NCBI GenBank assembly: GCA_039186435.1
Contig: JBCDAA010000001.1
Location: 2,433-66,432 of the forward strand
Source of the DNA: Myxococcota bacterium
Lineage (GTDB): Bacteria > Myxococcota_A > Polyangia > Polyangiales > Houyiibacteriaceae
Direction: 5' to 3'
Length of the DNA: 64,000 nt
Shown: positions 526 through 56,857 of the stretch, in pieces
Layout of the letters: each line of letters begins with the position of its first letter
Numbering within the stretch: the stretch's first letter is position 1
Made by a program: the position numbers and the translations under genes
Notes under the pieces: generated by a model
Seen by the model: only the letters and a program-made list of their open reading frames with translations
Database searches by the model: none
What the model was told of the DNA's origin: nothing

Positions 526-528
526 CCC

Positions 529-2570: not shown

Positions 2571-2693
2571 TACTGGTGCGTGCCGCTCGAGGTGCGAGAT
2601 GCTGGTGCGTGCCGCCCGAGGTGCGGCCGTCCAGCCGGACTTCCAAGGGTGCTAAAGGGTCGACAGTCTGACGTGTGCCGTCCGAGGTGCGGT
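2571..2693. repeat. Three copies of a GTGCCG(Y)(Y)CGAGGTGCGG element (two in a 29-bp tandem, one 55 bp further on) in an intergenic spacer
   Basis: Direct reading: tactggtgcgtgccgctcgaggtgcg (2571-2596), tgctggtgcgtgccgcccgaggtgcg (2600-2625) and gtgtgccgtccgaggtgcgg (2674-2693). It lies between the transposase-like gene start and the flavin reductase stop. Confidence 0.85.
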
Positions 2694-2732
2694 TGCGCCA
2701 CCGTCGGAACGACGAACTGTCCGCGAGCCGCT

Positions 2733-3218
2733 CTAGTCCGCGTCGATACGGCGATACGAACCGTCAAAATAGAGCAGAGGCGCTTTCGAACCGTCGACGG
2801 TGCCGTGGAGCACCTCACCGATGTAGATCGTGTGGGTGCCTTCGAGATGCGCGGACCGGACGCGGCACTCCAATTGGGCGAGGGCCCCATCAATCAAGGG
2901 CACGCCGGTATTCCCTTCGGTCCACGAGACCCCGTCGAACCGTTCCGCACCTGGGACAACAGCGAAGCGTGTGCTGATCGCTTCCTGGTCCGACGACAGA
3001 ATGTTGACGGCGAACACCCCCCCCGCATCGATCACATCGCGGGTTGTCGAAGATCGATTCGCGCACACCAGAACAAGCGGGGGCTCCGCCGATACGCTCG
3101 AAAACGCCGAAACGGTCATCCCGTGAATCTCGCTACCTGCGCGCGAAGTAAGCACTGTGACTCCGCTCGCCCATCGGCGCATGACCTGCTTGAACGTTGC
3201 ATCGTCGACGAGGCTCAT
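2733..3218 (-). CDS. Flavin reductase-like FMN-binding protein (HpaC/RutF family)
   Basis: 161 aa. FKQVMRRWASGVTVLTS...HGMTVSAFSSVSAEPPLVLVC...FAVNIL...F is the typical flavin_reduct domain. The start overlaps the upstream SDR stop (ATGA). Confidence 0.85.
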   Translation of the reverse strand: MSLVDDATFKQVMRRWASGVTVLTSRAGSEIHGMTVSAFSSVSAEPPLVLVCANRSSTTRDVIDAGGVFAVNILSSDQEAISTRFAVVPGAERFDGVSWTEGNTGVPLIDGALAQLECRVRSAHLEGTHTIYIGEVLHGTVDGSKAPLLYFDGSYRRIDAD

Positions 3219-4180
3219 AGTGCTCCTGCCAGGGAAGGGGCCCGCACGACCTCAGCGAGGTCCGAGGTGCGAAGGCCGACCATCTCCATGCTGATATTCC
3301 AAAGCTCGAGTGCTGAAGACGAGTCTCGCGCGGACGGCGCAGGCACCCGTATTTGGCAGTCTGCGAGGTACTTCCCTGAGACTCCCCGGAGAGAGGGGTC
3401 GCTTGCTGCGTACACGGAAGTCGCAGCCCCCTGGCTAGCGGTCTTCAAAAACGGTTGTGCGAGCCGTGTGGCGAGCGCGAGGGCTTTGCTGTCTCGAGTC
3501 ACGTTGGTTGCGACGGATCCGGGGTGCACAGCGTTGGATGTGATGATGGTTGCGTCCAGGCGCCGTGCGAGTTCCGCGGAGAACAGAATCTGCGCGAGTT
3601 TGCTGCGCGCGTACGCTTCGAGGCCACGATAACTCCCAGTCGCCGCGAGGTCGCCAAAGTTGAGCCCAGGGCTGGTAAGCCGGATCGGGATTCCCACAAC
3701 GTTGGCCAGATAGACCGCGCGCCCCATTGGACCCGACAGCCCCGCCTGCTCGTGGAGTCGGGATGAAACGTGGACAATTCTTCGATCGCCATCCGATTCC
3801 AGCATCCGTCCGAGCAGTCGGTGCGTCAGCAGAAAAGGTGCGAGATGGTTCACTGCAAAGGTGTCTTCGAAGCCTTCTTTTGAGCTGCGGCGTTCTTGAT
3901 GCCAGACCCCCGCGTTGTTGACCAACACATGGATGGGTTCGCCGGGTCGAAGCAACTCCCCCGCAAGGTTTTCCACGGCATCAAGCGACGAGAAGTCTGC
4001 TTGAAACGACTGTACGTCGCTTTCCTTGGCGCTTTGGCGGACCGCTACCTCTGCGTCCCGGGTGCGTTCCGGGTTGCGGCCGACGAGGCGTACTCGAGCA
4101 CCTCGGACGGCAAGGGCCTTCGCCGTTTCCAGGCCAATACCGCTGCTAGCGCCGGTAATTACGCAGACTCGGCCTTTCAT
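3215..4180 (-). CDS. Short-chain dehydrogenase/reductase (classical SDR, retinol-dehydrogenase-like)
   Basis: Has MKGRVCVITGASSGIGLETAKAL (TGxxxGxG), NNAG and YxxxK (YARSKLAQ). Start trimmed to ATG 4180. Overlaps the WS/DGAT stop and the flavin reductase start by 4 nt each. Confidence 0.85.
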   Translation of the reverse strand: MKGRVCVITGASSGIGLETAKALAVRGARVRLVGRNPERTRDAEVAVRQSAKESDVQSFQADFSSLDAVENLAGELLRPGEPIHVLVNNAGVWHQERRSSKEGFEDTFAVNHLAPFLLTHRLLGRMLESDGDRRIVHVSSRLHEQAGLSGPMGRAVYLANVVGIPIRLTSPGLNFGDLAATGSYRGLEAYARSKLAQILFSAELARRLDATIITSNAVHPGSVATNVTRDSKALALATRLAQPFLKTASQGAATSVYAASDPSLRGVSGKYLADCQIRVPAPSARDSSSALELWNISMEMVGLRTSDLAEVVRAPSLAGAL

Positions 4181-5589
4181 GACTGTGAAACCTGCGATCG
4201 TTCTTCCTCGCGCACCAGGCTCGAGAGCTCCTCGTACGCGCCGGCAACCGCCTCGGCCATCCTCCACACGTCGGGGACCACCTGGGCGCACACCATGAAA
4301 CCAAAATCGACCTCGCCGCGATAGCTCATAACGGTGAGGTTCAGCCCCGCTCCATCGATGACGGGTCCCATTGGATAGGCCGATACGAGCTCCGCTCCTG
4401 CCAGGTAGGCCGTAAAGGGTGGGCCCGGCACGTTGGAGACGATAACGTTGTGGATAGGCCGGTGGTGGTCCGCAAGTTTGAACCGCGAGTAGAGGTCGCT
4501 TGCGAAATCGAAGGTGCTCGAAGGGGCGAGCTGTGCCCAATCGCGGAGCAGATGAGGCCCCCACGTCGCGTGGTTTGCTTTCGCTCCTTTAGTCGCGGCG
4601 CAAATGTACCGCAGTCGTTCTTCTGGGTCGTCGATGTGGGTTCCGAGAGGGACGAACATGGCGGAAACGTTGTTACCGCCACCTCGACCGCCGGTGGCGA
4701 TCGGGCATCCTGCGACAAGCGATTGGGAGGGGAGGTCGTCGTGATGGGCGAGGTAGCGGCGCAAAACTCCTGCGCAAATCGCGAGGATCACGTCGTTGAG
4801 CTTCGCACCTGGGACGGTCTTCTTGATGCGTTTGAGTCCCGCTAGTGGGAGACGGGAAAACGCGACGTCGCGGCGCGCACCGATCGCGTGATTCAGCCGC
4901 GTCCGAGGTGCTGTTAGCGGAATTCCGCCACTGGGACGTTGGGGATCCCGCTGGCGGTCGAGCACCTCTCCAAATGCTTTCGCCGTGCGCTTTGCGAGAT
5001 GAAACAACCGTTGCGGTTGCCGCAATCGGTGCGACGCCGCCGTTTTCAGCATTTCGAACTCGGAGGGGACCGGTTCGCGGGGCAGCTCAAGCGCCGTCGG
5101 CTCTGCGAGTTCGGGCTGAAGGCTGAGCAGATGGACCATGAGCCCGGCGCCCATCATGCCGTCCACTGCGCTGTGGTGTACTTTACACACGACGGCGAAC
5201 CGCCCGTTTTCGAGGCCCTCCACGACCCAAAGCTCCCAAAGCGGCCGGTCTCTCGGAAGCGGCGCGCTGTTGATTCGCCCGACGAGTTCGCCGAGTTGCT
5301 TCGCCGTCCCAGGTGCGGGGCAGGTCACCCGCCGCATGTGATGGATCAGATCAAAATCGGGATCCTCAAACCAGTACGGGTGATCGATCCCAAGCGGGTC
5401 GGCGACCAGTCGTCGCGTGAACGGTGGAAGCCGGCCGAGGCGACTTCGAATGAGGTCTTCGACAGCCTCGTAGCGGTACCCGCCCGGCATCGTTGACGGA
5501 TCCAGGACCGCGCAGAGAGCGACATGCATGTGCATCTCTCGGGTCTCGAGGTACAGAAACGACGCATCCAGTCCCGAAAGCTGCTCCAT
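4177..5589 (-). CDS. Wax ester synthase / diacylglycerol acyltransferase (WS/DGAT family)
   Basis: 470 aa. N-terminal LSGLDASFLYLE, catalytic HHSAVDG (HHxxxDG) and a C-terminal PLYxxG-like region (VSAYPMGPVIDGAGLNLTVMSYRG). Confidence 0.9.
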   Translation of the reverse strand: MEQLSGLDASFLYLETREMHMHVALCAVLDPSTMPGGYRYEAVEDLIRSRLGRLPPFTRRLVADPLGIDHPYWFEDPDFDLIHHMRRVTCPAPGTAKQLGELVGRINSAPLPRDRPLWELWVVEGLENGRFAVVCKVHHSAVDGMMGAGLMVHLLSLQPELAEPTALELPREPVPSEFEMLKTAASHRLRQPQRLFHLAKRTAKAFGEVLDRQRDPQRPSGGIPLTAPRTRLNHAIGARRDVAFSRLPLAGLKRIKKTVPGAKLNDVILAICAGVLRRYLAHHDDLPSQSLVAGCPIATGGRGGGNNVSAMFVPLGTHIDDPEERLRYICAATKGAKANHATWGPHLLRDWAQLAPSSTFDFASDLYSRFKLADHHRPIHNVIVSNVPGPPFTAYLAGAELVSAYPMGPVIDGAGLNLTVMSYRGEVDFGFMVCAQVVPDVWRMAEAVAGAYEELSSLVREEERSQVSQS

Positions 5590-5655
5590 CGTGGCCGGCG
5601 AAACGATAGCGCCGCCGGCGTTGACGGTCCACGAGACTGAGCCTACCGCCCCGAA

Positions 5656-6552
5656 ATGACGCGGTTTGTCTTGCTAGCCGTAGTTGTCGCCGGCTGTGGC
5701 TTCGAACGAAGGCTCGAATATGTGCCCGTTCGGAGCGAAGTGATGCGGGCCGAACTTTCGTTTTCCGTGTACACGCCGCCCGATTTTCGCGAGGACGAGG
5801 AGCTGCCGCTCGTGCTGTTTCTCCACGGTGGTGGAGACGACCCGGCTGTCTTCGACCGCTATGGATTGTCCGCACGTTTGGACGCTGCCGTTCGCGCCGG
5901 CGAAGTGCCTCGTGCCGTGATCTTCCTTCCTCAGGGGGACAACGGTTTTTGGATGAACTGGTACGACGGCACGCGCCGCTACGAGGACTGGATTGTCGAT
6001 GAGCTCATGCCGCAGGTTGCGGAGCGCTATCACACCGCGCGGTGCCCCGAGAGCTGCCACGTTATGGGAGTTTCGATGGGCGGACACGGCGCGCTTCGGT
6101 TTGCGCTGCATCGACCGGAACACTTCGCGTCCGTTAGCGCGCTGAGCGGCCCGATCTTCACGACGGAGCAGATGGCGGACTTCACCAACAACCGCCTCTT
6201 TAGCATCCTGATCCCCACCCATCGGATCTTCGGCCCCTCGGAGCCGCGTTCGCGAATCGCCGATGAAGATATTTTCCTCCGCTGGACAGCACCCGAGGAC
6301 GTTGGTGACCTCCGTATCTTCCTCGCATGGGGCACCCGGGATCGCGGGGGACTGAAGGACCTGAACGTGCGGTTCAGCGAGCACCTCGGACGTTCGGGGA
6401 TCCGTCATCACGCCGAGGAATACGAAGGGAATCACAGCTGGGTCAGCTGGACGCCTATCATCTTCCGGGCGCTTCGACATCAGGTGGCCAAACACGAGCT
6501 GGTTTCGGAAGAAGGCGTCGAGGTGACGGCATCCAGGGCCAGCGAGAGTTGA
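5656..6552 (+). CDS. Secreted/lipoprotein esterase (esterase D / putative esterase family, alpha/beta hydrolase)
   Basis: Lipobox-like signal MTRFVLLAVVVAGCG, LPLVLFLHGGGDD, and nucleophile elbow GVSMGGHGAL. Confidence 0.8.
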   Translation: MTRFVLLAVVVAGCGFERRLEYVPVRSEVMRAELSFSVYTPPDFREDEELPLVLFLHGGGDDPAVFDRYGLSARLDAAVRAGEVPRAVIFLPQGDNGFWMNWYDGTRRYEDWIVDELMPQVAERYHTARCPESCHVMGVSMGGHGALRFALHRPEHFASVSALSGPIFTTEQMADFTNNRLFSILIPTHRIFGPSEPRSRIADEDIFLRWTAPEDVGDLRIFLAWGTRDRGGLKDLNVRFSEHLGRSGIRHHAEEYEGNHSWVSWTPIIFRALRHQVAKHELVSEEGVEVTASRASES

Positions 6553-6597
6553 ATCCAAGGGTGGACGTGATAGGTCGGTGCCGTTGAGGAGGTGAGC

Positions 6598-7326
6598 ATG
6601 TCGGGCGCGCGGCCGTACGCACTGGTGACCGGGGGAAGTCGCGGAATCGGCGCTGCCATCGCGCGCGCGCTTGCGGCGGCGGGGCATCCCATCCTCCTCA
6701 ACTATCGATCCAACCACGACGCGGCGGGGCAGGTGAAAGCCTCGATCGAAAGCACCGGCGGCGAGGTTCGGCTCGTCCCCTTTGATGTCGCCGATCGCAG
6801 TGCCGCGGACGCCGCGGTTGCTCAACTCTTGGACGAGAAGCTTGAGGTTGGAGTTCTCGTCAACAATGCGGGAATCGCGCAAGACAACAGCTTTCCGACC
6901 ATGACGTGGGAGCAGTGGGAACAGGTGACGCGGGTTACCTTAGACGGCTTCTTCAACGTCACCCGTCAGCTCGTAATGCCGATGGTGCGTCGCCGCTGGG
7001 GCCGAATCATCAACGTCTCGAGCGTCAGCGGGGTGATCGGAAATCGCGGTCAAGTGAACTACTCGGCGGCGAAGGCGGGACTCATTGGCGCGACCAAGGC
7101 GCTCGCGCAAGAGGTAGCCAAGCGCCGGGTCACAGTGAATGCCGTGGCGCCAGGGCTCGTCGAGACCGAAATGATTGAGGGTGCGCCCCTCGACATCATC
7201 TTGAAGCACATCCCCATGCGCCGAATCGGGAAGCCGGAGGAAGTCGCGTCGTTGGTTGCGTATTTAGCGAGTGATCTTGCGGGGTACATCACCGGACAAG
7301 CGATTGTGATGAGCGGAGGCCTGTGA
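6598..7326 (+). CDS. fabG: 3-oxoacyl-ACP reductase (FabG-like SDR)
   Basis: ALVTGGSRGIGAAIA, NNAG, S...YSAAKAG catalytic set, PGLVETEM. GGAGG sits 6 nt upstream of ATG 6598; the ORF track starts at GTG 6592. Confidence 0.9.
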   Translation: MSGARPYALVTGGSRGIGAAIARALAAAGHPILLNYRSNHDAAGQVKASIESTGGEVRLVPFDVADRSAADAAVAQLLDEKLEVGVLVNNAGIAQDNSFPTMTWEQWEQVTRVTLDGFFNVTRQLVMPMVRRRWGRIINVSSVSGVIGNRGQVNYSAAKAGLIGATKALAQEVAKRRVTVNAVAPGLVETEMIEGAPLDIILKHIPMRRIGKPEEVASLVAYLASDLAGYITGQAIVMSGGL

Positions 7327-7402
7327 GCCCGCTTTGTCCCAGGTGCGCGCGAATCCTCCCAGGAGCTCCACTGGTCCCGCCACTCCACGGGGCGCAGCGC
7401 TT

Positions 7403-7487
7403 CGATCCGTCCGAGGTGCTCGATTCGTCCGAGGTGCTCGATTCGTCCGAGGAGCTCGATTCGTCCGAGGTGCTCGATTTCTCCGTA
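7403..7487. repeat. 18-bp tandem repeat, about 4.7 copies (CGATYCGTCCGAGGTGCT)
   Basis: Copies at 7403, 7421, 7439 (one G->A change), 7457 and a partial copy at 7475. It lies in the 236-bp gap between fabG and the next gene. The core is the dispersed GTCCGAGGTGC motif. Confidence 0.95.
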
Positions 7488-7561
7488 GGGAGAGCGGGCT
7501 CGGTTTCTGGCGATTGGACCTGCACCTCGGTCGACGACCGACGTGCCAGCCAGCGGTACGG

Positions 7562-8179
7562 ATGCGCGTCCTAGGTGCGGTTCTGAACGCGGTGCTTGTC
7601 ATCGCCTACCCAATCGGGGTCTGGCTCGCGCTCACCCGTTTCCGTCCTCGATTTGTGGGACTTCTCGTGCTCGCAGCGGTCGTTCCAATACTCGTCCTGC
7701 GTTTCTGGAAGGCCGACCGCGAGCACCTCGTCGCCGTCCTGCGGGTCCCGCTCGTCATTCTCACCGTCCTTCTGCTGGGCGTGGCGACCGACGACTCTCG
7801 CTTTCTTCTCTTCCTCCCCGTCTTTATCAACGGAGCGCTTCTCCTCACCTTCGGAAGTTCGCTTCGGCAGGACGTTTCTCTGATCGAGCGGTTTGCCCGC
7901 CTCCAAGAACCTGACCTCTCAGCGGCGAAGCAGGCGCACTGCAGGCAAGCGACCGTTGCGTGGTGCGTCTTCTTTTTCCTGAATGCGGTGACGGCAGCGG
8001 GAATGGCGCTGGTAGCGCCCATTTCGTGGTGGGCCGCCTACAACGGCGGTATCGCCTATGCGCTGATCGGCGTGATGTTTGCGGGGGAGTATGTCGTCCG
8101 AAAGTACCGATTTCGGGACTACGGTGGCGGCCTTCACGACCGCTTGCTCTCGACGCTTTTCCCGCCGGAGGGATCATGA
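7562..8179 (+). CDS. Polytopic membrane protein, unknown function (resembles the COG4648-type membrane protein of aryl-polyene-like clusters)
   Basis: 205 aa from ATG 7562, with about 5 hydrophobic helices. The stop overlaps the next start (ATGA). The upstream part of ORF 7334.. is translated repeat (VRGARF x4) and probably not coding. Confidence 0.5.
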   Translation: MRVLGAVLNAVLVIAYPIGVWLALTRFRPRFVGLLVLAAVVPILVLRFWKADREHLVAVLRVPLVILTVLLLGVATDDSRFLLFLPVFINGALLLTFGSSLRQDVSLIERFARLQEPDLSAAKQAHCRQATVAWCVFFFLNAVTAAGMALVAPISWWAAYNGGIAYALIGVMFAGEYVVRKYRFRDYGGGLHDRLLSTLFPPEGS

Positions 8180-9129
8180 CCCGGCGTTTGGACGACCGTG
8201 GCCGCACGTCCGTTGCGACCCCTCCGGATAGGACCGAGCCCTCGTGGCGGAACATGCAAGAACGAGGGACCGTCGTTGGCATCAAGACACTTGTCATTTG
8301 CGCGACGATGTTTGGACGTGCTCCCGCGCGGGCCATCCTCTACCTCGTCGCGCTCTACTACACCCTCGCCTCGTCCCAGGTGCGTCGCGCGGTCACCTCG
8401 TTTCGCGGCCGACTCGGCGTTTCGACCGGGTTTGGCGCGACCTACCGCACTGTACTTCGGTTCGCACAATGCTCGCTCGACGCACTCTTTCAGCTCCGGG
8501 GCATGACGAAGCACTTTCGAGTGGAGCGCAACGGCCACGAAATCCTGGGCGAACTTCGCGAAACCGGCACAAGTGCGATCCTCCTTGGAGCACACCTCGG
8601 TAGCATTCACGCCATGCGGAGTCAGAGTCGCGACGAAGCGCTTCCTGTTGTTCCTGTCGTGTACACAAAGAACGCGCGACGATTTAACCGCGTCCTTGAG
8701 GAGCTGGACCCGACCTCAACGACCCGGCTCATCGAGATCGGTGACGGGGACGATATGGATTTCATGCTCGCCATCCGGGAACGTGCGGAGAGCGGAGCGC
8801 TGATCGCGATTTTGGGCGATCGCACGCAACCCGGTGCCAAGACGGTCGACGTCGACTTTCTCGGAGCGAAGGCCCAGGTGCCCGCGGGTCCCTACATCCT
8901 CGCCGCGACGTTGCGCCTACCCGTGTACTTCACCGTCGGGATCTACCGGGGCGGCGCTGACTATGAGTTCTTCTGCATTCCCTTTGCGGACCGAATTGTG
9001 CTCCCGCGCGGAAAGCGCCAGGAGGCGATCGCGGAATACGCGCAAAAATACGCGGATCTGCTTACAGAGTTCTGTCGAAAGGAGCCGGATAACTGGTTCA
9101 ACTTCTTCGACTTTTGGAGCGGCCAATGA
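8176..9129 (+). CDS. Lipid A biosynthesis (LpxL/HtrB)-type lysophospholipid acyltransferase family protein
   Basis: 317 aa from ATG 8176. The overall pattern (N-terminal membrane helix, ILLGAHLGS..., LIAILGDR...VDFLGAKAQVPAGPYILA) fits the lauroyl/myristoyl acyltransferase family. 4-nt overlaps at both ends. Confidence 0.6.
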   Translation: MTRRLDDRGRTSVATPPDRTEPSWRNMQERGTVVGIKTLVICATMFGRAPARAILYLVALYYTLASSQVRRAVTSFRGRLGVSTGFGATYRTVLRFAQCSLDALFQLRGMTKHFRVERNGHEILGELRETGTSAILLGAHLGSIHAMRSQSRDEALPVVPVVYTKNARRFNRVLEELDPTSTTRLIEIGDGDDMDFMLAIRERAESGALIAILGDRTQPGAKTVDVDFLGAKAQVPAGPYILAATLRLPVYFTVGIYRGGADYEFFCIPFADRIVLPRGKRQEAIAEYAQKYADLLTEFCRKEPDNWFNFFDFWSGQ

Positions 9130-9545
9130 AGACGTTGAAGAAGGAGCGCCTCGAAGGCGTCCACGAACAGACGGTTCCGTTTCACGACTGCGACCCCCTC
9201 GGCATCGTATGGCATGGCCACTACCTGAAGTACTTCGAGATCGCGCGGGAGCGTCTCTTCGATCGCATCGGCCTTACGCTCCCGTACTTCCGCGATCACG
9301 GACTGCACCTGGTCGTGATCGAATCGCGAATTCGACACGCCTTCCCCCTGCGTACCGGCGAGCTGCTGCGCGCACGCTGTTGGTTCAAGGAAACCGAGCA
9401 GCGAATTTTGCTTGGTGGCGAAGTCACCAATCTCACTCACGATCGCCGTGCGGCGCGAGCCTGGATCACGCTCGTCAGTATGCGCGGCGAGGAAATGTTG
9501 CTGGAGACCCCTCATGAGATCCTGCGTTTGGTTCCTGGTCCTTAG
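9126..9545 (+). CDS. 4HBT/YbgC-like acyl-CoA (acyl-ACP) thioesterase
   Basis: Hotdog thioesterase signature VPFHDCDPLGIVWHGHYLKYFEIARE. ATG 9126 overlaps the upstream stop. Confidence 0.75.
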   Translation: MKTLKKERLEGVHEQTVPFHDCDPLGIVWHGHYLKYFEIARERLFDRIGLTLPYFRDHGLHLVVIESRIRHAFPLRTGELLRARCWFKETEQRILLGGEVTNLTHDRRAARAWITLVSMRGEEMLLETPHEILRLVPGP

Positions 9546-10134
9546 TGCGCTCGTGGTGCCGAAGGACGTCAATGCGCAGGCGCCCAGCCTCGATTCCCTG
9601 CTGGCGTCCTTTCGTGGCCTTTCCGGCCTGAGCGCGCGATTTCGGGAGGAGAAGCAGGTTGCGCTTTTGGCAGCCCCCCTGCGAAGCGAAGGTGAGATTC
9701 ACTTTGCGCCTCCGGGCCGGTTGCTCCGTCGCGTCACCGGCCCGACGACTTCAGCCGCGCTCATTGCGGACGGCCGACTGACGATGTCTGCTGGGGGGAG
9801 GCGCCAGCAGTTCGACCTTTCGAGACAGCCTCTTGTCGCGGGCTTCGTGGACAGCTTTCGCTATGTGCTTGCGGGGGACCGCGCTGCGCTCGAGCGCGCG
9901 TACGACATCAATTTCACGGTCCAAGACGGCACCTGGGAACTCCGTCTTCGGCCGAAGGCGTCCCCCCTTCGCGAGTTCCTTCGGGAGATGGTGATGGTGG
10001 GGCGCGGCGTCGTCGTGAGCCGTTTGAGGATGACGGAGGCGAGCGGCGACGTCACCACGACGGACTTCTTTGACGTGGACGTGGGCCGAGAGTGGTCGCC
10101 GTCCGAGGTGCGGCGCGTCTTCCGGGTTGAGTAG
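9514..10134 (+). CDS. LolA-like outer-membrane lipoprotein carrier family protein
   Basis: Signal peptide [23 protein letters not shown], then [36 protein letters not shown], typical of LolA-like proteins. Start set at ATG 9514. Confidence 0.6.
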
Positions 10135-10153
10135 TTTGCGCTATGGTCGACCC

Positions 10154-11167
10154 ATGATCGACCTTCGCTCCGACACGGTCACACGACCGACTTCCGAGAT
10201 GCGCAGCGCCATCGCGAGCGCGGAAGTTGGCGATGATGTGTACGGTGAGGATCCGAGCGTGCTAGGGCTTGAAACGTATGTTGCCGAGCTTCTGAACAAG
10301 GAGAGCGCGCTCTTCGTTCCGTCCGGTACGATGGCGAATCAAATCTGCCTCGCGCTCCACGGTCGTGCGGGTGACGAGATCCTCGTCGGGAGTGGCGCGC
10401 ATATCGCTCTTTATGAGAGTGGCGCTGCGCCCGGGTTATCCGGCCTGCAGCTGACACCGCTCGCCGGAGATGGCCGCTTCACGGCGGACGCTCTCCGCGA
10501 CGCGCTTCATCCGCCCGAAGCGTACTACTACGCGAAACAGTGCGCGGTCGCGATCGAGAACACCCACAACCACAGCGGTGGTCGGGTCTTTCCGCAAGAC
10601 GACGTTCTGGAGGTTGCGGCTCTCGCTCGAGCGAATGCCCTTGCGGTTCACCTCGATGGAGCGCGGCTCTGGAACGCGTCGGTCGCGACCGGGCTTTCGG
10701 TGGCGGAGCTTGCGGCCCCCGCGGACACCGTAAGCGTTTGCCTTTCCAAGGGGCTTGGCGCGCCCGTGGGTTCTGTCGCGCTCTTTCCGAAAGAGCGGCG
10801 CGTGGATGCCTTGCGTTTGCGACGGAGGTTCGGGGGCGCACTGCGTCAATCGGGCTTGCTTGCAGCGGCCGGTCTTCACGCGCTGCGACACCACCGCGAC
10901 GACCTTTCCCACGACCATCGCCGCGCGAAGGGGCTTGCGGAGGGACTCGCGGCTCTAGGCTACGACTGTGACGTCTCGATCGTGGACACCAACATCGTCG
11001 TGTTTCGTGTCGAGATGTCCGCGGAGCGTTTTGTCCAGCGAGCACGTGAGGCAGGCGTACTCCTTGGGGCGATTGGGCCACGATCCATTCGCGCGGTGAC
11101 CCACCGAGACCTGAGCGACGCGAATATCGAAGAGGCACTCGACGTTTTTCGCGTTGTCCGCGGATGA
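10154..11167 (+). CDS. ltaE: Low-specificity L-threonine aldolase (PLP-dependent)
   Basis: [30 protein letters not shown], and the [15 protein letters not shown]-lysine region. Confidence 0.9.
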
Positions 11168-12300
11168 AGTGGGAAGGACCGCACCTGGGACGACCGCACC
11201 TGGGACGACCGCACCTGGGACGACCGCACCTGGGACGGCCGCACCTGGGACGGCCGCACCTGGGACGGCCGCACCTGGGACGAGTCTGGGCAGCGGTTGC
11301 CATCCTCACCTTTGGCTGCCCACCCACACTATCCCGACCGGAGAGCGGTCCTCATCTGGACTACCTGGCGCAAGGCGAACGCGAAATGCGCCACGGGCGC
11401 TTCGATGCGGCAGCCACGGCGTTTTCGCAGGCCGCCAGCGAGGCCGAACGCCGCGTTGACCGTGATGAGGCCCGATATCGGCAGAGTAGGGCACTGCGCG
11501 AGGGCGAGCGATTTCACGAAGCGATTGCGATCCTTGATGAAATTGCAGCGACGCGGCCGCCCTCCCGACGAACGGCGAGAGCGATCTTCGACGCGGCGTT
11601 ACTGCACGAGCGTCTTGGGGACGAGTCGGAAGCAATCGCTGGATTCGAGCGAGTCGTTCGGCAGCACTCAGACGAGGGTCCCGCCGCGCGGGCGCTTCGC
11701 CTCTGGTTGTCCAAGCTTCCGCCGGGGAGTGCCCGCCGGCTGACCGAGGTGCTCCATCGAGACCTCCGCGATACCGACCTCGCGGACGACCTCCTCGCCG
11801 CCCGGGCGGAACTCGCACTCGAGGAGGGCGATCGCCAAGGTGCCCGAGGTGCGCTCGAGCAGCTGGTCGCCGACCACCCGTATCCTCAAGGGCATCGATG
11901 GGACGACGCTATCGAGCGACTCGCGCAGATGGATCTTGAAGACGGAGCTCCGGAACAAGCGGTGCGGCGCCTAAGCGCAATGCTTGAGCGCGCGGAGCAA
12001 ACCACCATCGTCGGGAGCTACACCCTGCCGGCGTTTCCCCGCGCTCAGCTCGAAATCGCGCGAATCTACCGCGACCATTTGGCGGACCCTGAAGCTGCCG
12101 AAGACGCCTTCGAGGAGCTTTCTCGAAGATTCCCGGACTCCACACTTCGAGACGACGCAACGGTGGAGCTTGGCGAAATGCTTCTGGGATCGGGCAGGAT
12201 CCGACGAGGGTGCGAAATGCTCCGGGATGCCGTCGCTGAGTTTGACGTGGGTTCCGCAAGGCGGCGCGCGACCGCACGAATCGCTTCGGACTGCGACTAA
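11164..12300 (+). CDS. TPR-like repeat protein, probably a lipoprotein; the N-terminus contains 7 x PHLGR encoded by a tandem repeat
   Basis: ATG 11164 overlaps the ltaE stop (ATGA). The hydrophobic stretch [12 protein letters not shown] follows the repeat, then helical TPR-like repeats. No in-frame ATG/GTG lies between the repeat and the hydrophobic segment. The alternative start is ATG 11386. Confidence 0.65.
11179..11283. repeat. 15-bp tandem repeat, 7 copies (CCGCACCTGGGACGR)
   Basis: Seven perfect or near-perfect head-to-tail copies; only the last base varies (A/G). The complement is YCGTCCCAGGTGCGG, i.e. the dispersed motif in reverse orientation. Confidence 0.95.
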
Positions 12301-12410
12301 GTCGCTCTTTGCTCAAACTGACCTCGCGCTCGCTTGTTCTGGCGACCCCCGCGGCGTTGCTCGCTTTGAAACAGAGTTCGCGCATTGCGCGCCGAGGCCT
12401 GACGAGCAAT

Positions 12411-12779
12411 CTAGAGATCGTCTTCGTCTTCGTCGGTCTCGTCCGCGAGGTCATCGAGGTCGTCGAGGCGATCATCGTCGCTTTCGTCGTCTTCCTCCAT
12501 CAGCGTCGGAAATTTGAGCTCCAGGTCGGCGTCCGAGAGCTGGCCTTCGAGAAGTTCGAAGAGCTCGTCGACGTCGTCGCCGCCCCACTCATCGAGCACC
12601 TCGGACACGAATTCATAGATATCGCCCGAGTCGATGTGCCGCTCGATCAGCTCCACCTGATCCTGCGTAAACACGTCGATCAGGTCCTCCCGGAGAGTCT
12701 CCGTGTCGCCGTCATCGATCGCATCCGTCGCGGAAAGTCGGACTTGCCGTACCGCTCGCCTACCAAGGAAGATTTCCAC
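12411..12779 (-). CDS. Highly acidic hypothetical protein
   Basis: 122 aa with a D/E-rich C-terminal tail. Third-position G/C bias favours the minus strand over the overlapping plus-strand ORF 12309..12815. Confidence 0.5.
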   Translation of the reverse strand: MEIFLGRRAVRQVRLSATDAIDDGDTETLREDLIDVFTQDQVELIERHIDSGDIYEFVSEVLDEWGGDDVDELFELLEGQLSDADLELKFPTLMEEDDESDDDRLDDLDDLADETDEDEDDL

Positions 12780-12834
12780 AAGCCACCTGCGCTATTGTTG
12801 ACCTGGAAGTCCTGAGACGGCGCGAACTATAAGA

Positions 12835-13488
12835 ATGGTGCTTGTGGTGTCAATGCAGTGGTTTCGACTCGCCCTAGGTGCGGTTTGTCTGCTCGGAATT
12901 TCGAGCAGTTCCGCGCCTGTGCGCGCAGACGCCTTCGAGCTTCCCCCGCCGCCCAGTTCCCATCCGCCGCGGATCGCTGCGGAGTTTCGCTTGGATGTGG
13001 TGTTCCCTCTTGACCAAAAGCCCATCTGCCCGAGTGGGAGTCGCTGTGTTTTTGGGGGAGGCGCGGGTCTGGGGGCGTTGGTCGAGTGGCGGTGGCCCTC
13101 TGGTCTAGGGCTCGGCCTTGGGTACGACGCGTGGTTCTTGGACGGGAACGGTGTGCACGAGCTCACGACGATGCAGAGCCTCCGAGTCGGGGTTCGTTAC
13201 CAATTCCTTCGGGATCGACAGACCCATCCATGGATTGGAGCTGCGTTCGGAGGGCTTCTCTTTGGAGACACGTTCCGCGCCGATGCAGCAGGTGGCCTCG
13301 TCGACGTTCAGCTAGGCGTTGAATTCGAGCTCTCCGCGTCCCTCGCGTTCACCATCGGAGCCACTCTTCGATGGCTCTCAACGACCTCATTTCGGACGTC
13401 GAGCGACGGGGTCGAGAGGGCGGAAGGCTTCGGGCCCGTCGGCGCGGCTGCGTTGAGCGTCGGCCTAGTGCTTCTTCCCTCCACCTGA
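12835..13488 (+). CDS. Secreted protein, possibly a small outer-membrane beta-barrel
   Basis: Signal peptide (ALGAVCLLGISSSSAPVRADA). Alternating hydrophobic/Gly-rich strands (LGLGLGYDAWF, LRVGVRYQF, VDVQLGVEFEL, AFTIGATLRWL). Confidence 0.45.
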   Translation: MVLVVSMQWFRLALGAVCLLGISSSSAPVRADAFELPPPPSSHPPRIAAEFRLDVVFPLDQKPICPSGSRCVFGGGAGLGALVEWRWPSGLGLGLGYDAWFLDGNGVHELTTMQSLRVGVRYQFLRDRQTHPWIGAAFGGLLFGDTFRADAAGGLVDVQLGVEFELSASLAFTIGATLRWLSTTSFRTSSDGVERAEGFGPVGAAALSVGLVLLPST

Positions 13489-13555
13489 ATGCGAATTCCT
13501 TGCAAGATCAACGCTTGACGTAGTCCCGTCCGACGAGGTCCACTTCGCCCTGCGG

Positions 13556-16806: not shown

Positions 16807-16815
16807 GGGCGCCGC

Positions 16816-18808: not shown

Positions 18809-18939
18809 AGCTCATCTAGGACGCCGCGGTTGCTCTCGAAGTTCACGTGCGTTGCACTTCGAGGGCACTCCCCTGACTCTTCCACCCGCGATTCTTCGGG
18901 AAACGGTGCGGATCGTGTCTTGCAGTCTGCTTGGGCAGG

Positions 18940-34075: not shown

Positions 34076-34080
34076 GCCAA

Positions 34081-37480: not shown

Positions 37481-37490
37481 GACAACGACG

Positions 37491-38594: not shown

Positions 38595-38599
38595 ATCTG

Positions 38600-39763: not shown

Positions 39764-39772
39764 GAGACAACG

Positions 39773-48794: not shown

Positions 48795-49994
48795 TCACGC
48801 ACGCGAGGTATCGATGCGGATTTCGTTCTCCAGCGTGCGGTGCACCGGGCAGCGGTCCGCGATCTCCATCATGCGAGCGCGCTGCTCCTCCGTGAGGTCA
48901 CCGACGATCTCGATCGTTCGCGTAAGAACGTCGATATGCCCGGTTTTCTTGGTGCACTCCTCGCAGTCCTTGGCGTGTTCCCGGCCATGTCGGAGGGAGA
49001 CCCGAACCGCCTCGAGGGGCCACTCCTTTCGGTCGGCGTACATTCGGAGCGTCATGGACGTGCATGTGCCGAGGGCCGCCAGCAACAATTCGTAGGGGCT
49101 CGGACCGAGGTCTGCGCCGCCCATGCGCGTGGGTTCGTCGGCGATGACCTGGTGGGTCCGCGCGCGAACCTGCTGCGTGAAGCCTTCGCGTCCCTCGACG
49201 ATCACTTCCCCCTTCTCGGTGGGGGCGCCTTCCTCGGCAACGTAGCGCCCCGCCCAGGAAGCGAGAACGTCCGCCACGTATTGCGCGTCCGAGGTGCGAC
49301 CGAGGAGGTGGTCGGCGCCGTCGAGGCTCACAAAGCTCTTCGGGTGCCGCGCGGCTTCGTAGATGCGCCGGGCGTTGTCGATGCCCACGATGTTGTCCTG
49401 CGGCGAATGAAAGACGAGCAGGGCGCGCTTGAGGGCGCCGAGCTTTGCCTCGCTAGTGTGGGTGCCGAGGTCGTCGAGAAACTCTTTGCCGATGGTGATG
49501 GTTCGTCCTGCCAGAAGGACATCGGCTTGGCCGTCCGCTTCGATGTCGGCTTCCCGATCGGCGAAGAGATGCCGGACGTGCGCGGGGTCCGCGGGCGCGC
49601 CGATCGTGGATACGGCTTTGACAGAGGCGATCTGCGGTGCGGCAGCGAGCACGGCAGCGCCACCGAGGCTGTGGCCGACCAAAATGCTGGGGCCGGTGAG
49701 GGTTTCCTCGAGAAAGGACGCCGCGCGCAGGAGGTCGCTTACATTGCTTGAAAACGTGGTCCGCGCGAACTCGCCGGACGACTCGCCGAGACCGGTGAAG
49801 TCAAAGCGGAGCGTCGCGATGCCGTAGCGTGCGAGGGCCCGTGAGATGACGCGGACCGGTCGCAGATCCTTGGAACAGGTGAAGCAGTGCGCGAAGACTG
49901 CCGTTCCTCGGAGCGTGCCAGGAGGACGGTGAAGGATTCCAGAGAGCGGTCCCTGGGACCCCTTAAACTCGACCGCGGTTTCGTTCGACGGCAT
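48795..49994 (-). CDS. Bifunctional alpha/beta hydrolase - OsmC/Ohr family protein
   Basis: N-terminus: AVFAHCFTCSKD, GHSLGGAAVL (nucleophile elbow). C-terminus: GPSPYELLLAALGTCTSMTL and ADRCPVHRTL (OsmC Cys pair). Confidence 0.85.
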   Translation of the reverse strand: MPSNETAVEFKGSQGPLSGILHRPPGTLRGTAVFAHCFTCSKDLRPVRVISRALARYGIATLRFDFTGLGESSGEFARTTFSSNVSDLLRAASFLEETLTGPSILVGHSLGGAAVLAAAPQIASVKAVSTIGAPADPAHVRHLFADREADIEADGQADVLLAGRTITIGKEFLDDLGTHTSEAKLGALKRALLVFHSPQDNIVGIDNARRIYEAARHPKSFVSLDGADHLLGRTSDAQYVADVLASWAGRYVAEEGAPTEKGEVIVEGREGFTQQVRARTHQVIADEPTRMGGADLGPSPYELLLAALGTCTSMTLRMYADRKEWPLEAVRVSLRHGREHAKDCEECTKKTGHIDVLTRTIEIVGDLTEEQRARMMEIADRCPVHRTLENEIRIDTSRA

Positions 49995-51334: not shown

Positions 51335-51351
51335 CGCGCGCATCACGCATC

Positions 51352-51412
51352 GAGCACCGATCTCGATTTGAGCACCGATCTCGATTCGAGCACCGATCTC
51401 GATTCGAGCGCC
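51352..51412. repeat. 18-bp tandem repeat, about 3.4 copies (GAGCACCGATCTCGATTY)
   Basis: Copies at 51352, 51370, 51388 and a partial copy at 51406, in the spacer after the sulfotransferase stop. The complement matches the 7403 array unit at 13 of 18 positions by eye in one circular phase. Confidence 0.9.
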
Positions 51413-53741: not shown

Positions 53742-53798
53742 GCGTTCTTTACCGAAGGCTAACGAGCGCGATCGGCAGCGCTCGCTAGGTTGGCCTTC

Positions 53799-53969: not shown

Positions 53970-54757
53970 CCGGCTTTTCGCTTCAGTGGTTTGGAGGCAG
54001 CGCGGAACGACGCTTTCGCCGGGACCGAAAGCCAGTGGAGATCGACTTTGCGTTGCTGGATCCTGCGGATCACCCACCGGAGATCGTGCGGGCTGCGCGC
54101 GCCGCTTGGACCTACGGCGCCTACCAGGAGTACTGCACCGGGGCGGCGTTTGCGGCGATTCAGGGAGCGCTCCTTCAAGCGGGAGCGCCCATCGACCTCA
54201 TCGCGGTGGCAGCAGGATTTGTGGAGGACGAGATGCTTCACGCGGAGTTGAACGCGCGCGTTGCGCTGGCGCTCGGCGGTGGGATTTCGCCGCCGGTGGA
54301 TCTTGCAAAGGTGACGCCCCGCACGTCGGGGGGTCCGCTCGAGGCCGCCCTCTCGCTCGTGGTTCAAACCTGCTGCGTGGGCGAAGCCTTTAGCGTTCCA
54401 ATCCTTGCGGGGACGGCGCGAGCAGCCACGCATCCCGTGGTTCGGGCGGTGCTCAAACGGATCGCAAAGGACGAAGCCGCCCACGCCTCGTTTGGGGGGT
54501 GGGTTCTCGATTGGGCCACGCCTCTTCTGGATGACAGCCTTCGAAGGCACCTCGGAGAGGTCGCGAGTGCCGCCCTTCGTCGCTTTGAGCGTCAGCGGAG
54601 CGAGCTGCCCCTCGATCGCGACCACCCGTCGATCGCTGCGCTGGGCTGGCTGAGCGCGAGTGCTTGGGACCAGACGGCGGAGCGCGCGATTTCAGAGCTT
54701 GTCGTCGCTCCGCTGGAAGCGCGAGGAATTCCGGTCGAAACGGCGGGAATTCCGTAG
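53966..54757 (+). CDS. Ferritin-like / diiron-carboxylate four-helix-bundle protein
   Basis: Two ExxH motifs (EDEMLHAE, KDEAAHAS) plus additional Glu helices (YQEYCTGAAF, CVGEAFSV). The start is uncertain: GTG 53966 or upstream 53924. Confidence 0.6.
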   Translation: MTGFSLQWFGGSAERRFRRDRKPVEIDFALLDPADHPPEIVRAARAAWTYGAYQEYCTGAAFAAIQGALLQAGAPIDLIAVAAGFVEDEMLHAELNARVALALGGGISPPVDLAKVTPRTSGGPLEAALSLVVQTCCVGEAFSVPILAGTARAATHPVVRAVLKRIAKDEAAHASFGGWVLDWATPLLDDSLRRHLGEVASAALRRFERQRSELPLDRDHPSIAALGWLSASAWDQTAERAISELVVAPLEARGIPVETAGIP

Positions 54758-54784
54758 GGATCCCGACGGTACATTGGGACGGCC

Positions 54785-56857
54785 GTGTCTCGCCTTCCTT
54801 CCGAACCCCATCGCGCTAACGTACCCGCCGTGGAGACGGGTCGGGACCCTCTGATCGGGCGGCGCCTCGGGGTGTACGAGGTGGAGCGGCGGCTGAGCAC
54901 CGGCGGCTTCGGTGCGGTGTATGCCGCGCGCCATATTCGGACCGGTCGAAAGTACGCCCTCAAAGTGTTGCGACCCGATCGCGCCATCGTGTCCCCGGAC
55001 GCGCGGACGCGTTTTCGGCGCGAAGCGGATGCCCTCGGTGCGCTTGGGCACGCAGGCATCGTTGCGATCCACGACTACGCACGCGAGGACGGGATCGACT
55101 ACCTCGTCATGGATCTTCTCGACGGAGAGGATCTCGCGGCGCGGATCGAACGACGCGGACGCCTCCCGATGGAGGAAGCATTCACGCTCGTCGCCGGGAT
55201 GGTGGATGCCCTCGACGCAGCGCATCGCGCGAAGATCGTCCACCGTGATCTGAAGCCGGCGAATATATTTCTTGCGCACACGCCCGGTGAGGGTGAACGA
55301 CCCGTTCTTCTCGACTTTGGGCTTGCGAAGGACACCAGCGGAAACGCGCAGAGTCTCACGGCCTCGGGCGAGACGCTGGGAACGCCGGCGTACATGGCGC
55401 CCGAGCAGGCGTCGGCGTCGCATGTCGACGAGCGAACCGACGTGTACGCGCTCGGGGCGGTCGTCTACGAAATGCTCGCTGGGGTCGCGCCTTTCGAGGG
55501 CAATGCGACCTCGGTGCTTCTGCAGGTGATGACGACGCCTCCGCGGCCTTTGCGCGAGCTCGTCGACGTTCCGGATCACGTGGCGGCCGCGGTGCATCGC
55601 GCGCTCGAAAAGGATCCGGGGGACCGCTTTCCGAGCGTACTGGCGTTTCGCGATGCCCTCTTTCGCCGCGGGGTTGAGGTGCCGCCGACCCGGCCGATGC
55701 CGGCGCCGGTGATCGAGAGTGGCGCGCCGCAGAGCGCGGTTGGTGCGCGGAGCACGGGGTCTTCGTTTCGCCGGGGGCTGCCAGTGGGGCTTGCGCTCGG
55801 CGCGGTGGCGGTCGTCGCGGGTGTGCTCTGGGTGACGACTTCGCCGGAACCGGAGCCCGTGGCGATGAATGCGGCGGCGCCGACTCTCGTCGACGGAGAG
55901 AACGTGGAGACTTCCGAGACAGAGACCTCGGTCGAAAGCGCCGAGACGGAGTCCGCAGAGACGGAGTCCGCGGAGACGGAGTCCGCCGAGTCCCTGGAGA
56001 GCGCGGAAACCGAAAGCGCCGAGACTGAAGCCGTCGCGGAACCGACCGTTGAGACGATGCGCACGGCGAGGCCAACGATGCGGCGCCGGGTCGCCATGAC
56101 GTCCATGGTCGGCGCGCCTCCCCCGGAGCCGGTGGACGTTGCAAGCGCGCGACCGCAACCGACGCGCGTCGAAGCGCCGAGCGAGCGTTCCACGCCTCCG
56201 AGCGATAGCGAGGGCGACGCGACCCGACGCGCCGAACTCCGCCAGCTTCGGGGACTCCTCGCGACGGTTAACCAGATGCGCCAAGGCCTTCAGGTGCTTC
56301 AGCGAGGTCAGGAGCCTTCCTTTTGTCGCGGCCAACGTCGACGTGCCGCCGGTGGCTCCCAGCTCGTTGTGAGCGAGGGCCAGCGGCTCGATCGGCTGAG
56401 GCGGCGGGCGTGCGAACCCTTCGAGGCTGCGCGGGAGCCGGATTCCGAGGTGCGCGGACTCTATCGCCGCTTTCCCGACACCCTTGACCGTTCGCAGCGA
56501 ATGGCGCGCGAGAACTCCTCGACGAATCAGCCTCGGGCGATCGCAGAGCAGATCGACGCGGCGATCGATCGTGCGCGAACGGCGTTTGGTGGCGTCGAAG
56601 AAGGGCGGCGTCCCTTCCCGTGCGACAACCCGGTGTGGTCGGAGCTTCGACGCCTGAGTACTTCCGAGAACAACTGGGCGGGGACGGCCGCGCGACGCGT
56701 TACCCAGGCGCAGTCGCGTATCTGCCAGCGGCTCGGGCTCGGCCGAACGCGGCTTTCCGGCGTGGCGCGCACCGCGGATACCGATCTTGATGACGTGGAG
56801 GGCAGCGTCCGAGCGGCGATTCGACCCCTCGAAGCGTATCTAGGAGAACAGGGATGA
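54785..56857 (+). CDS. Hanks-type Ser/Thr protein kinase with a TM helix, acidic repeat linker and extracytoplasmic C-terminal domain
   Basis: GGFGAVYAA...YALKVL (VAIK-type Lys), HRDLKPANIFL, DFGLAKD, GTPAYMAPEQ. TM helix GLALGAVAVVAGVLWV. Confidence 0.92.
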   Translation: MSRLPSEPHRANVPAVETGRDPLIGRRLGVYEVERRLSTGGFGAVYAARHIRTGRKYALKVLRPDRAIVSPDARTRFRREADALGALGHAGIVAIHDYAREDGIDYLVMDLLDGEDLAARIERRGRLPMEEAFTLVAGMVDALDAAHRAKIVHRDLKPANIFLAHTPGEGERPVLLDFGLAKDTSGNAQSLTASGETLGTPAYMAPEQASASHVDERTDVYALGAVVYEMLAGVAPFEGNATSVLLQVMTTPPRPLRELVDVPDHVAAAVHRALEKDPGDRFPSVLAFRDALFRRGVEVPPTRPMPAPVIESGAPQSAVGARSTGSSFRRGLPVGLALGAVAVVAGVLWVTTSPEPEPVAMNAAAPTLVDGENVETSETETSVESAETESAETESAETESAESLESAETESAETEAVAEPTVETMRTARPTMRRRVAMTSMVGAPPPEPVDVASARPQPTRVEAPSERSTPPSDSEGDATRRAELRQLRGLLATVNQMRQGLQVLQRGQEPSFCRGQRRRAAGGSQLVVSEGQRLDRLRRRACEPFEAAREPDSEVRGLYRRFPDTLDRSQRMARENSSTNQPRAIAEQIDAAIDRARTAFGGVEEGRRPFPCDNPVWSELRRLSTSENNWAGTAARRVTQAQSRICQRLGLGRTRLSGVARTADTDLDDVEGSVRAAIRPLEAYLGEQG
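55940..55993. repeat. 15-bp tandem repeat (GCNGAGACGGAGTCC, 3.6 copies) inside the kinase gene
   Basis: Copies at 55940, 55955, 55970 and a partial copy at 55985. Encodes AETES repeats. The core sequence differs from the GTCCGAGGTGC family. Confidence 0.8.

Follow-up and report, generated by a model that had tools for sequence, protein, structure and literature searches.

The window analysed here, a 64-kb stretch of a Myxococcota chromosome, holds a large excess of one short DNA word, GTCC[G/C]AGGTGC. This excess is explained in kind: the word belongs to a satellite, resembling repetitive extragenic palindromes (REPs), of a divergent protein family of the REP-associated tyrosine transposase (RAYT)/IS200 type, represented in the window by a gene designated orfX. 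In its full form, c-GTCC-[G/C]-AGGTGC-[G/T], the word is probably the recognition core of the repeats that accompany this Myxococcota HUH/Y1 transposase family, and has probably spread locally around orfX. Its near-saturating, substitution-based writing into conserved genes over at least 16.5 kb is the most interesting part of the finding.

Counted on both strands and with tandem arrays included, the window contains 36 exact matches to GTCC[G/C]AGGTGC, against a mean of 0.15 and a maximum of 2 in dinucleotide-preserving shuffles of the window. An earlier note on the same sequence, which had pointed out the word and put its expectation at well below one copy, was right in this respect. The positions that it gave (12 on the plus strand, 2 on the minus strand) are all exact matches, although its list of single copies lacked three on the minus strand, at 2947, 4098 and 4805. 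A position matrix of 17 solitary copies resolves a 13-mer with sharp limits, c-GTCC-S-AGGTGC-k: 13 of the 17 copies have C at position -1, 16 of 17 have G or T after the core, and the flanks contain zero information. The matrix is asymmetric, in agreement with the description of the motif as non-palindromic, and the core is used on both strands. Across some 20 loci the orientation is mixed (13 plus vs 7 minus), and GC skew is uniformly positive across the region that carries most of them.

Few copies lie outside this region. Whereas the motif had been described as dispersed over 2571-56458, 33 of the 36 exact copies fall within 2.6-15.2 kb, and their density is 2.6/kb at 2.5-15.2 kb (hereafter the zone) vs 0.06/kb in the other 51 kb. 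Copies with one mismatch follow the same pattern (1.26/kb in the zone vs 0.18/kb elsewhere), so that the enrichment is approximately 43-fold for exact and 7-fold for one-mismatch copies. Within the zone, exact copies outnumber one-mismatch copies about 2:1, and the two- and three-mismatch classes are at background. The Logan contig L378 (run SRR22824305) adds 1.57 kb on the left side of the window, with four more exact copies in a histidine-kinase gene. With this extension the zone measures at least 16.5 kb and reaches at least 1.4 kb beyond the left end of the window.

The independent Logan assembly of SRR22824305 also covers 1548-7425 at 99.93% identity. All ten motif copies of this segment are present and none of the four single-nucleotide differences falls inside a motif, which rules out an assembly artefact. 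A phage or plasmid origin was rejected, since megablast of 1-16 kb against phage and plasmid collections gave zero matches. A centromere cluster of the parS type, a palindromic 16-bp site near parAB, does not fit the asymmetric core, and no ParA/ParB family member was found among the window open reading frames (ORFs) scanned. No known RNA family was found in the window.

The gene orfX (1205-2452, minus strand; start at 2452 from the gene call on Logan contig L201) encodes 415 amino acids, with a C-terminal extension of about 270 residues beyond the HUH/Y1 part. Pfam, including Y1_Tnp, gave no match for orfX or for any of 19 family members. The sole family match was to NCBIfam NF047646 (REP_Tyr_transpos), obtained for 14 of the 19 members and, in the case of orfX, at E 2e-5, below the curated cut-off. 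In the family alignment the HUH motif reads N-H-H-H, with H61 and H63 invariant, and an invariant Y126 lies in a helix; the Y-motif, Y-x-H-L-N-C/P, resembles that of TnpA_Y1 class 2. An AlphaFold model of orfX (predicted local distance difference test score, pLDDT, 82.7; predicted template-modelling score, pTM, 0.81) has as its top Foldseek match in the PDB 4ER8, the E. coli RAYT bound to a REP hairpin (E 3e-4, target TM 0.68), followed by the TnpA proteins of ISDra2, IS608 and IS200. By its modelled fold, orfX is thus an unannotated HUH/Y1 transposase of RAYT/IS200-like type. A reading as a defence-system protein found no PADLOC match.

The family is large. Searches returned 99 full-length relatives of orfX of about 430 amino acids, some of them labelled ‘putative transposase’ by the Joint Genome Institute (JGI); most relatives sit on contigs of 1.5-3 kb, and many copies are at contig ends. 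In a profile search, representative clusters numbered approximately 2,500 at E <= 1e-3; at E <= 1e-30 there were 302. In the genome_contigs collection the family is nearly confined to metagenome-assembled genomes (MAGs) of Myxococcota, with two to three paralogues per genome that are 81-99.5% identical. In the closest relative of the window (L202/L203), upp adjoins the flavin reductase gene with no orfX between them, from which we conclude that orfX was inserted in the window lineage.

The core found in the window recurs around these genes. Upstream of the closest homologue of orfX (L211, 54% identity) there are at least five copies of GATCCGTCCCAGGTGCTCGAAAGTCTGTCGAG, and L227 carries the identical core GTCCCAGGTGC on both sides of the gene. 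At L209, L219, L221 and L235, 10-23 upstream units are paired with 4-6 inverted downstream units, built on the variant cores GTCCGGGGTGC, GTCCGTGGTGC, GTCCCAGGTG[G/C] and CCCAGGTAC. Orientation follows a rule over 27 loci: upstream copies lie on the gene strand in 47 cases vs 1, and downstream copies in 0 vs 32. Core density within about 2 kb of family genes is approximately 15 times that of control loci and falls to the control level farther out. Comparison of paralogues delimits a duplicated unit of about 1.7 kb, bounded by the innermost upstream and downstream cores. In relatives the gene is enclosed in this unit by two inner cores, one upstream and one downstream and inverted, and outer arrays of 4-23 core-bearing units lie beyond them. 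Because the same core brackets the homologues in inverted orientation, we read the motif as a REP-like satellite of the orfX family. It is not a classical REP, since it has no hairpin and many intragenic copies, and the gene is multicopy in relatives. With respect to the hairpin, ten representative units folded no more stably than shuffled DNA (z-scores of -1.4 to +1.0) and had no conserved stem.

Individual family loci (L219, L257, L235, L236, L239, L231 and L232) have distinct high-copy words of their own, for example AGGGAACCGTCCGTGGTGCGGCAAATGCTG x 23, CCCAGGTACTCGAAAGTCTG x 16 and ACCCTTCGGGG x 12. In several loci the core is followed by a tail, which reads TCGAAAGTCTG for upstream cores and TCGCAC(T/G)(C/G)AG for downstream ones. 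Comparison of the loci suggests, at the level of sequence, that protein and repeat co-vary across the family. Core-bearing clusters that lack an orfX gene occur in other MAG contigs (L147, L293, L374 and L082). These were the useful contigs among the matches listed by two collection scans, one with motif pairs and one with the extended 19-mer GATCSGTCCSAGGTGSTCG; the listed matches were otherwise mostly unrelated singletons, such as coding low-complexity repeats. One of these contigs, L147 (positions 1-3420; JBFWYI010000198.1, from a Sandaracinaceae MAG), carries an RHS C-terminal toxin and immunity module between 169-nt inverted repeats, which encode C-terminal fragments of orfX-family proteins (..VRHRF..LRDRRRGRP..DPPA) and are adjoined by core-bearing repeats. 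A role of such elements in the shuffling of RHS toxin cassettes is possible. The two ends of the contig share a 123-nt overlap; a reading as a small circular iteron plasmid was rejected in favour of the toxin/immunity module, and the terminal overlap fits repeated RHS modules.

We then consider the copies that lie within genes. Twelve single copies do so, in five of the six possible reading frames, which rules out a single peptide repeat as the cause. The peptides encoded, V-[PR]-G-A, S-[EQ]-V-R, A-P-[RG]-T, T-S-D and H-L-G-R, agree with the frame and peptide assignments made earlier. Codon-level comparison was possible at nine sites in six genes, using three orthologous loci. Eight of the nine sites are gap-free in every orthologue, the sole indel being a one-codon gap in L206 just after the motif at 4098. 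As the orthologue alignments have no gap at the motif, the intragenic copies were made by substitution and not by insertion, and an insertion origin of the REP type or of the MITE type (MITEs being miniature transposable elements with inverted repeats) is ruled out. To the question raised at the outset, whether the motif in orthologous genes is inserted or conserved, the answer is neither: no insertion was found, the relatives compared do not have the motif, and all nine testable sites were reached by substitution.

At these sites the window differs from its orthologues by synonymous and nonsynonymous changes that jointly yield the exact word, for example TTC GAG GGC GCC -> GTC CCA GGT GCG. 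In an alignment of 12 sequences of the wax ester synthase/diacylglycerol acyltransferase (WS/DGAT), three copies lie on aligned, partly invariant residues with zero gaps, namely at TAPRT, at CPAPG[T/G] and at xEGAKLN, which has become VPGAKLN. One relative of 65% GC appears to retain an earlier state. At L379 4887, orthologous to the kinase-gene copy at L378 835, it reads CTCCGAGGTGC, a 10/11 match that encodes the same S-E-V-L; we take this, by alignment, to illustrate how an ancestral site was near-cognate where the window lineage has the exact core.

Several codons demanded by the motif are rare, their synonymous shares in genes outside the zone being 5% for CCA, 8% for GCA, 12% for CGA and CCT, and 15% for GGT. 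In zone genes the motif could be encoded synonymously at 13 peptide sites, and 12 of these carry it exactly, vs 0.24 expected from codon usage in this codon-aware test; the thirteenth matches at 10 of 11 bases. The earlier statement that codon usage does not suffice is thereby borne out. Genes outside the zone, with twice the coding length, contain four motif-compatible peptides, one of them occupied. Judged from these comparisons, zone genes have been bent towards the DNA word in their codons and in the amino acids that they encode.

The surrounding gene order is well kept in relatives, at 66-72% WS/DGAT identity, the closest of which are named Sandaracinus, Sandaracinaceae or Polyangiales MAGs. 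From the left, the genes of the zone encode a histidine kinase, a STAS-like protein, upp, orfX, a flavin reductase, a short-chain dehydrogenase/reductase (SDR), WS/DGAT, an esterase and fabG, followed by an IspA-like membrane protein, an acyltransferase, a LolA-like protein, a threonine aldolase, a TPR lipoprotein, an outer-membrane protein, a zinc-ribbon/FHA protein and PP2C. Relatives with the conserved neighbourhood have neither motif copies nor a comparable over-represented word. The motif is absent from the relatives L202-L208, L379 and L380. The loci of the closest genome_contigs relative of the threonine aldolase (58% identical) are likewise without it.

Tandem Repeats Finder, by which the arrays were defined, confirms the three arrays reported in the earlier note and adds a fourth upstream of orfX. 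There, the spacer at 2563-2690 (plus strand) combines a repeat of 29 nt x 2.2 (2563-2625) containing near-cores with an exact core at 2680. The near-cores, at 2585 and 2614, had been listed with four other sites as one-mismatch relatives; this is correct for 2614, 7568, 14437 and 56443, whereas 2585 and 12871 have two mismatches. In the spacer between fabG and the IspA-like membrane gene (7327-7561, plus strand), an exact core at 7336 is followed by an array at 7402-7479 (plus strand; 18 nt x 4.3, unit GATTCGTCCGAGGTGCTC, beginning cttcGATCCGTCCGAGGTGCTCGA) and an inverted near-copy at 7522; the spacer also holds a degenerate unit, GAATCCTCCCAGGAGCTC. The 18-nt unit resembles GATCCGTCCCAGGTGCTCGAAAG of L211. 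As this spacer is 235 nt long in the window vs 0-28 nt in relatives, we interpret it as an inserted cluster of orfX-family repeats, of the REP or bacterial interspersed mosaic element (BIME) type. An array where the threonine aldolase and TPR-lipoprotein genes meet (11177-11283, minus strand; 15 nt x 7.1, GGYC plus core) would encode (HLGRP)7 in the n-region of a signal peptide if the ATG at 11164 were used. The longest array (14913-15134, minus strand; 15 nt x 15.8, CGTC plus core, with near-copies from 14870) lies in the acidic N-terminal region of the PP2C phosphatase and gives DGTSD repeats. Two cores at 13841 and 13874 (13841-13884, plus strand), both encoding V-P-G-A, are found in the Pro/Ala/Gly-rich linker of the zinc-ribbon/FHA protein, with near-copies at 13748 and 13763.

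Single cores are spread through the remaining genes of the zone. The flavin reductase gene has one in sense orientation at 2947-2957 (minus strand), where V-P-G-A replaces T-E-A-A or A-P-A-D of the orthologues with no gap. The SDR gene has an antisense copy at 3260-3270 (plus strand; T-S-D, orthologue R-D-E-D, no gap) and a sense copy at 4098-4108 (minus strand; V-R-G-A), gap-free against L202. In the WS/DGAT gene the core occurs in sense at 4805-4815 (minus strand; V-P-G-A, orthologues x-E-G-A, no gap) and in antisense at 4901-4911 (plus strand), where the invariant A-P-R-T is encoded via the rare codons GCA CCT, and at 5306-5316 (plus strand; conserved A-P-G-T). Further antisense copies lie at 6381-6391 in the esterase gene (minus strand; H-L-G-R) and at 12596-12606 in the ORF 12309-12815 (minus strand; H-L-G-H). 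Sense copies are present in the lipid A-type acyltransferase gene at 8373-8383 (plus strand; S-Q-V-R) and in the LolA-like gene at 10101-10111 (plus strand; S-E-V-R). Beyond the zone, two isolated exact cores at 34083 and 34196 (34083-34206, plus strand) lie in the spacer upstream of a squalene epoxidase/synthase gene, and one at 49287-49297 (plus strand; T-S-D) is antisense in a hydrolase/OsmC gene.

The genes outside the zone include an RHS/Tc-type toxin, a sterol-type cluster, ilvD and others. The toxin-like protein (18877-25635; 2252 amino acids, SpvB/TcdB/FG-GAP/RHS) comes directly after the FHA/PP2C/FHA-trypsin genes. The sterol-type biosynthesis cluster (34253-44101), just downstream of the cores at 34083 and 34196, comprises a fused squalene epoxidase and squalene/phytoene synthase (1075 amino acids), a 3-beta-hydroxysteroid dehydrogenase-like epimerase, HMG-CoA reductase and a sterol C-methyltransferase. 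Two more tandem arrays outside the zone have no relation to the motif, at 51350-51409 (18 nt x 3.3, TCGAGCACCGATCTCGAT) and 55939-55990 (15 nt x 3.5, CGCCGAGACGGAGTC).

Base composition also sets the zone apart. The G+C content at third codon positions (GC3) is 0.66-0.76 for its genes (0.5-18 kb; window 1-18084) vs 0.76-0.86 at 18877-64000, and is 0.66 for the kinase gene to the left of the window. The orthologues of zone genes in L202 and L204 are not depressed in GC3 relative to their own neighbours. On the right, low GC3 and the motif zone end at roughly the same place, and the toxin-like gene lies close to it. The low GC3 fits local AT-biased damage and repair and a separate history of the segment equally well. 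About 1.4 kb to the left of the window (L378 120-290), the histidine-kinase linker contains two adjacent 18-nt tandem duplications, one bearing the motif (VRGAPS/VRGAGR) and the other without it (ARPTGR/ARPTEP), which suggests that slippage is generally high in unconstrained coding segments of the zone.

How might the word have been written into so many sites? In the zone the bare core takes two forms: tandem clusters inserted in spacers or in unconstrained N-terminal or linker coding segments, each with a linker of its own, and solitary exact 13-mers in conserved genes. In the account that we propose, the orfX protein would recognise, and probably nick, the core. Nicks at cognate sites may lead to slippage and so to arrays; indeed, the different linkers of the three arrays (TCGATTC, GGYC and CGTC) point to local amplification of a resident core with its own flank, and not to insertion of a fixed element. 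At near-cognate sites, short-patch repair of the nicks may use a cognate copy close by as its template, producing exact cores, of which those that are not tolerated would then be removed by purifying selection. Such local damage and repair could also account for the lowered GC3. We favour such nick-stimulated short-patch conversion among three candidate routes into genes, the others being selection for binding sites and import from a motif-rich donor. In its fullest form, this idea becomes what may be called ‘motif homing’: a Y1 HUH transposase, or its nicks, would rewrite near-cognate sites in neighbouring genes, codons and amino acids included, into exact cores, while seeding arrays at unconstrained sites and leaving a local AT-biased footprint in GC3. 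We regard this general process as unlikely at present.

Several observations weigh against the reading of the motif as the recognition core of a transposase spreading around orfX. Binding or cutting of the core by the orfX protein is something that we infer. Known Y1 transposases and RAYTs recognise hairpins, and the repeats have no significant one. To our knowledge, there is no mechanism by which a Y1 transposase converts a patch of 11-13 nt that has no homology in its flanks. At the 26 other family loci, cores are scarce beyond about 2 kb from the gene, and this near-absence of a halo indicates that proximity to the gene alone does not make one. The zone stretches to the left as well as to the right of orfX, and its local restriction might mark a compositional domain or imported DNA instead. 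Furthermore, orfX itself departs from its relatives: the upstream copies at 2585, 2614 and 2680 (spacer 2453-2732) are antisense to the gene, contrary to the orientation rule, and the 37 nt (1168-1204) between its stop codon and upp hold no downstream end. The window gene is probably an immobilised copy.

A difference in ancestry would explain the location of the zone while remaining compatible with the identity of the core as that of a transposase. According to this view, which we consider possible if somewhat unlikely, the GC3-poor, motif-rich segment (from -1.4 kb or farther left to about +17 kb) and the GC3-rich remainder differ in history, one of them having been imported by recombination, and the motif is frequent genome-wide in the lineage of origin. 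The GC3 dip in the zone and the left-hand kinase gene, missing from the relatives’ orthologues, speaks for it, as do the roughly matching right limits of dip and motif and the cargo of the motif-poor part, whose RHS/Tc toxin and sterol cluster are often moved horizontally. However, it is the zone that has the ancestral gene order of the family (HK-STAS-upp-flavin reductase-SDR...fabG-IspA-acyltransferase-LolA, HK denoting the histidine kinase), the motif-poor part includes the housekeeping gene ilvD as well as three exact copies vs 0.1 expected, and no motif-bearing donor or sister genome was found among the matches listed. Distinctly less likely, in our view, is that the copies are selected binding sites of a regional DNA-binding protein, possibly a domesticated orfX protein, with arrays as high-avidity and intragenic singles as low-avidity sites and with a possible part in organising the chromosome, in silencing or in controlling the lipid/envelope and FHA/PP2C genes. 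A sharp asymmetric 13-mer on both strands would suit such a protein, and so would the arrays and cores in spacers upstream of genes (7402, 11177, 34083/34196), the fairly regular spacing of about 1 kb over 6-15 kb and the persistence of copies in genes despite rare codons and amino-acid changes. Yet real site sets are usually degenerate, whereas exact copies here exceed one-mismatch copies 2:1 with the two- and three-mismatch classes at background; moreover, we know of no regional system of this sort built on a non-palindromic 13-mer, the sites are absent from relatives that share the gene cluster, and the same core forms transposon ends elsewhere.

The earlier note had named four classes of short pervasive motif as candidates, of which REP comes closest through the link to a RAYT-like gene family, even though its hairpin and extragenic features fail; DNA uptake sequences (DUS), Chi sites and FtsK-orienting polar sequences (KOPS) are unsupported. 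For a DUS, or the similar uptake signal sequence (USS), accumulated through biased uptake and recombination in natural transformation, the length of 11-13 nt, the dominance of exact copies, the local density of about one per 0.75 kb and the substitution into tolerant positions on both strands and in many frames would all be expected. We nevertheless hold this origin to be very improbable, given the approximately 40-fold drop in density outside the zone on the scale of the window, tandem arrays of three different periods, and the fact that in other genomes the same core makes up both the inverted ends and the satellite arrays that go with a family of transposase genes. In addition, no inverted-pair terminators were seen, and no genome among the matches listed is enriched genome-wide. 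That the motif is a polar signal of the chromosome, as Chi and KOPS are, is scarcely credible: over-representation in both genes and spacers is shared with such words, but loci of mixed orientation under positive GC skew and confined to one zone are not, and the motif is longer than known Chi or KOPS words and forms tandem arrays.

If the transposase family reading is correct, a large unannotated protein family gains a cognate DNA core as a function-linked handle. A divergent RAYT/IS200 branch with non-hairpin, strictly oriented arrays challenges the assumption that Y1 transposases need hairpins. The substitution of a short mobile-element word into conserved genes, at near-saturating occupancy of the available sites, is a signature so far mainly of uptake sequences. 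Should the transposase be the cause, this would be a new route for selfish DNA to shape coding and protein sequence, spreading without insertion. On a practical level, the arrays break short-read assemblies of these genomes, as seen in the Logan contigs that end at 7425, within an array.

Among known systems, REP/RAYT pairs are marked by a usually single-copy Y1 transposase, flanking REP or REPIN stem-loops with a GTAG head and high-copy extragenic dispersal (PMC5581495, PMC3733652, PMC3479197, PMC6006769). As in the REPtron of E. coli TnpA_REP (4ER8; PMC3479197, PMC5581495, PMC3116915), whose fold is the closest solved one, lineage-specific short repeats are inverted around a Y1 HUH gene, vary in sequence with the protein and form clusters inserted in spacers. 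Unlike the REPtron, the motif repeats have neither stem-loop nor GTAG head and form direct tandem units in one-sided arrays; most loci in the window are intragenic and made by substitution; and the family gene is multicopy in relatives, its 1.7-kb unit being duplicated like an insertion sequence (IS), and in orfX carries the C-terminal domain of about 270 amino acids and is missed by Pfam Y1_Tnp. The CGTC-tagged REPs (Di Nocera et al. 2013, PMC3733652) share the C-G-T-C start, with C at -1 in 13 of 17 singles, and have copies inside genes and no dedicated transposase found (PMC3733652). Their 8-9-bp stems, 4-5-nt loops, CCA tail and inserted intragenic copies set them apart from the window motif.

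Members of IS200/IS605 (IS608, ISDra2) have in common with the orfX family the Y1 HUH catalytic fold, the multicopy state and the dependence of ends or targets on short specific sequences. Their ends are asymmetric subterminal hairpins with no inverted repeats, whereas those of the orfX unit are inverted, non-folding cores with satellite arrays, and the orfX family is without tnpB. The DUS of Neisseria and the USS of Pasteurellaceae resemble the motif as exact 10-13-mers substituted into coding DNA in several frames at tolerant positions. Unlike the window motif, they are genome-wide (about 1/kb, roughly even), not arrayed and unlinked to transposase ends.

The nearest described cases, likened to orfX by their description, are TnpA_Y1 class 3 and subclass 2.6, reported as having ‘atypical secondary structures’ and as intermediates between IS and REPtron, for example in Solibacter usitatus (Quentin et al. 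2018, PMC6006769). The main text of this survey does not name Myxococcota or Deltaproteobacteria (PMC6006769). It reports other TnpA_Y1 subclasses with large C-terminal domains, as in orfX, and without repeat association (PMC6006769). Class 3 and subclass 2.6 share with the orfX family flanking repeats that lack GT[AG]G and fold weakly, and several close copies of the gene per genome.

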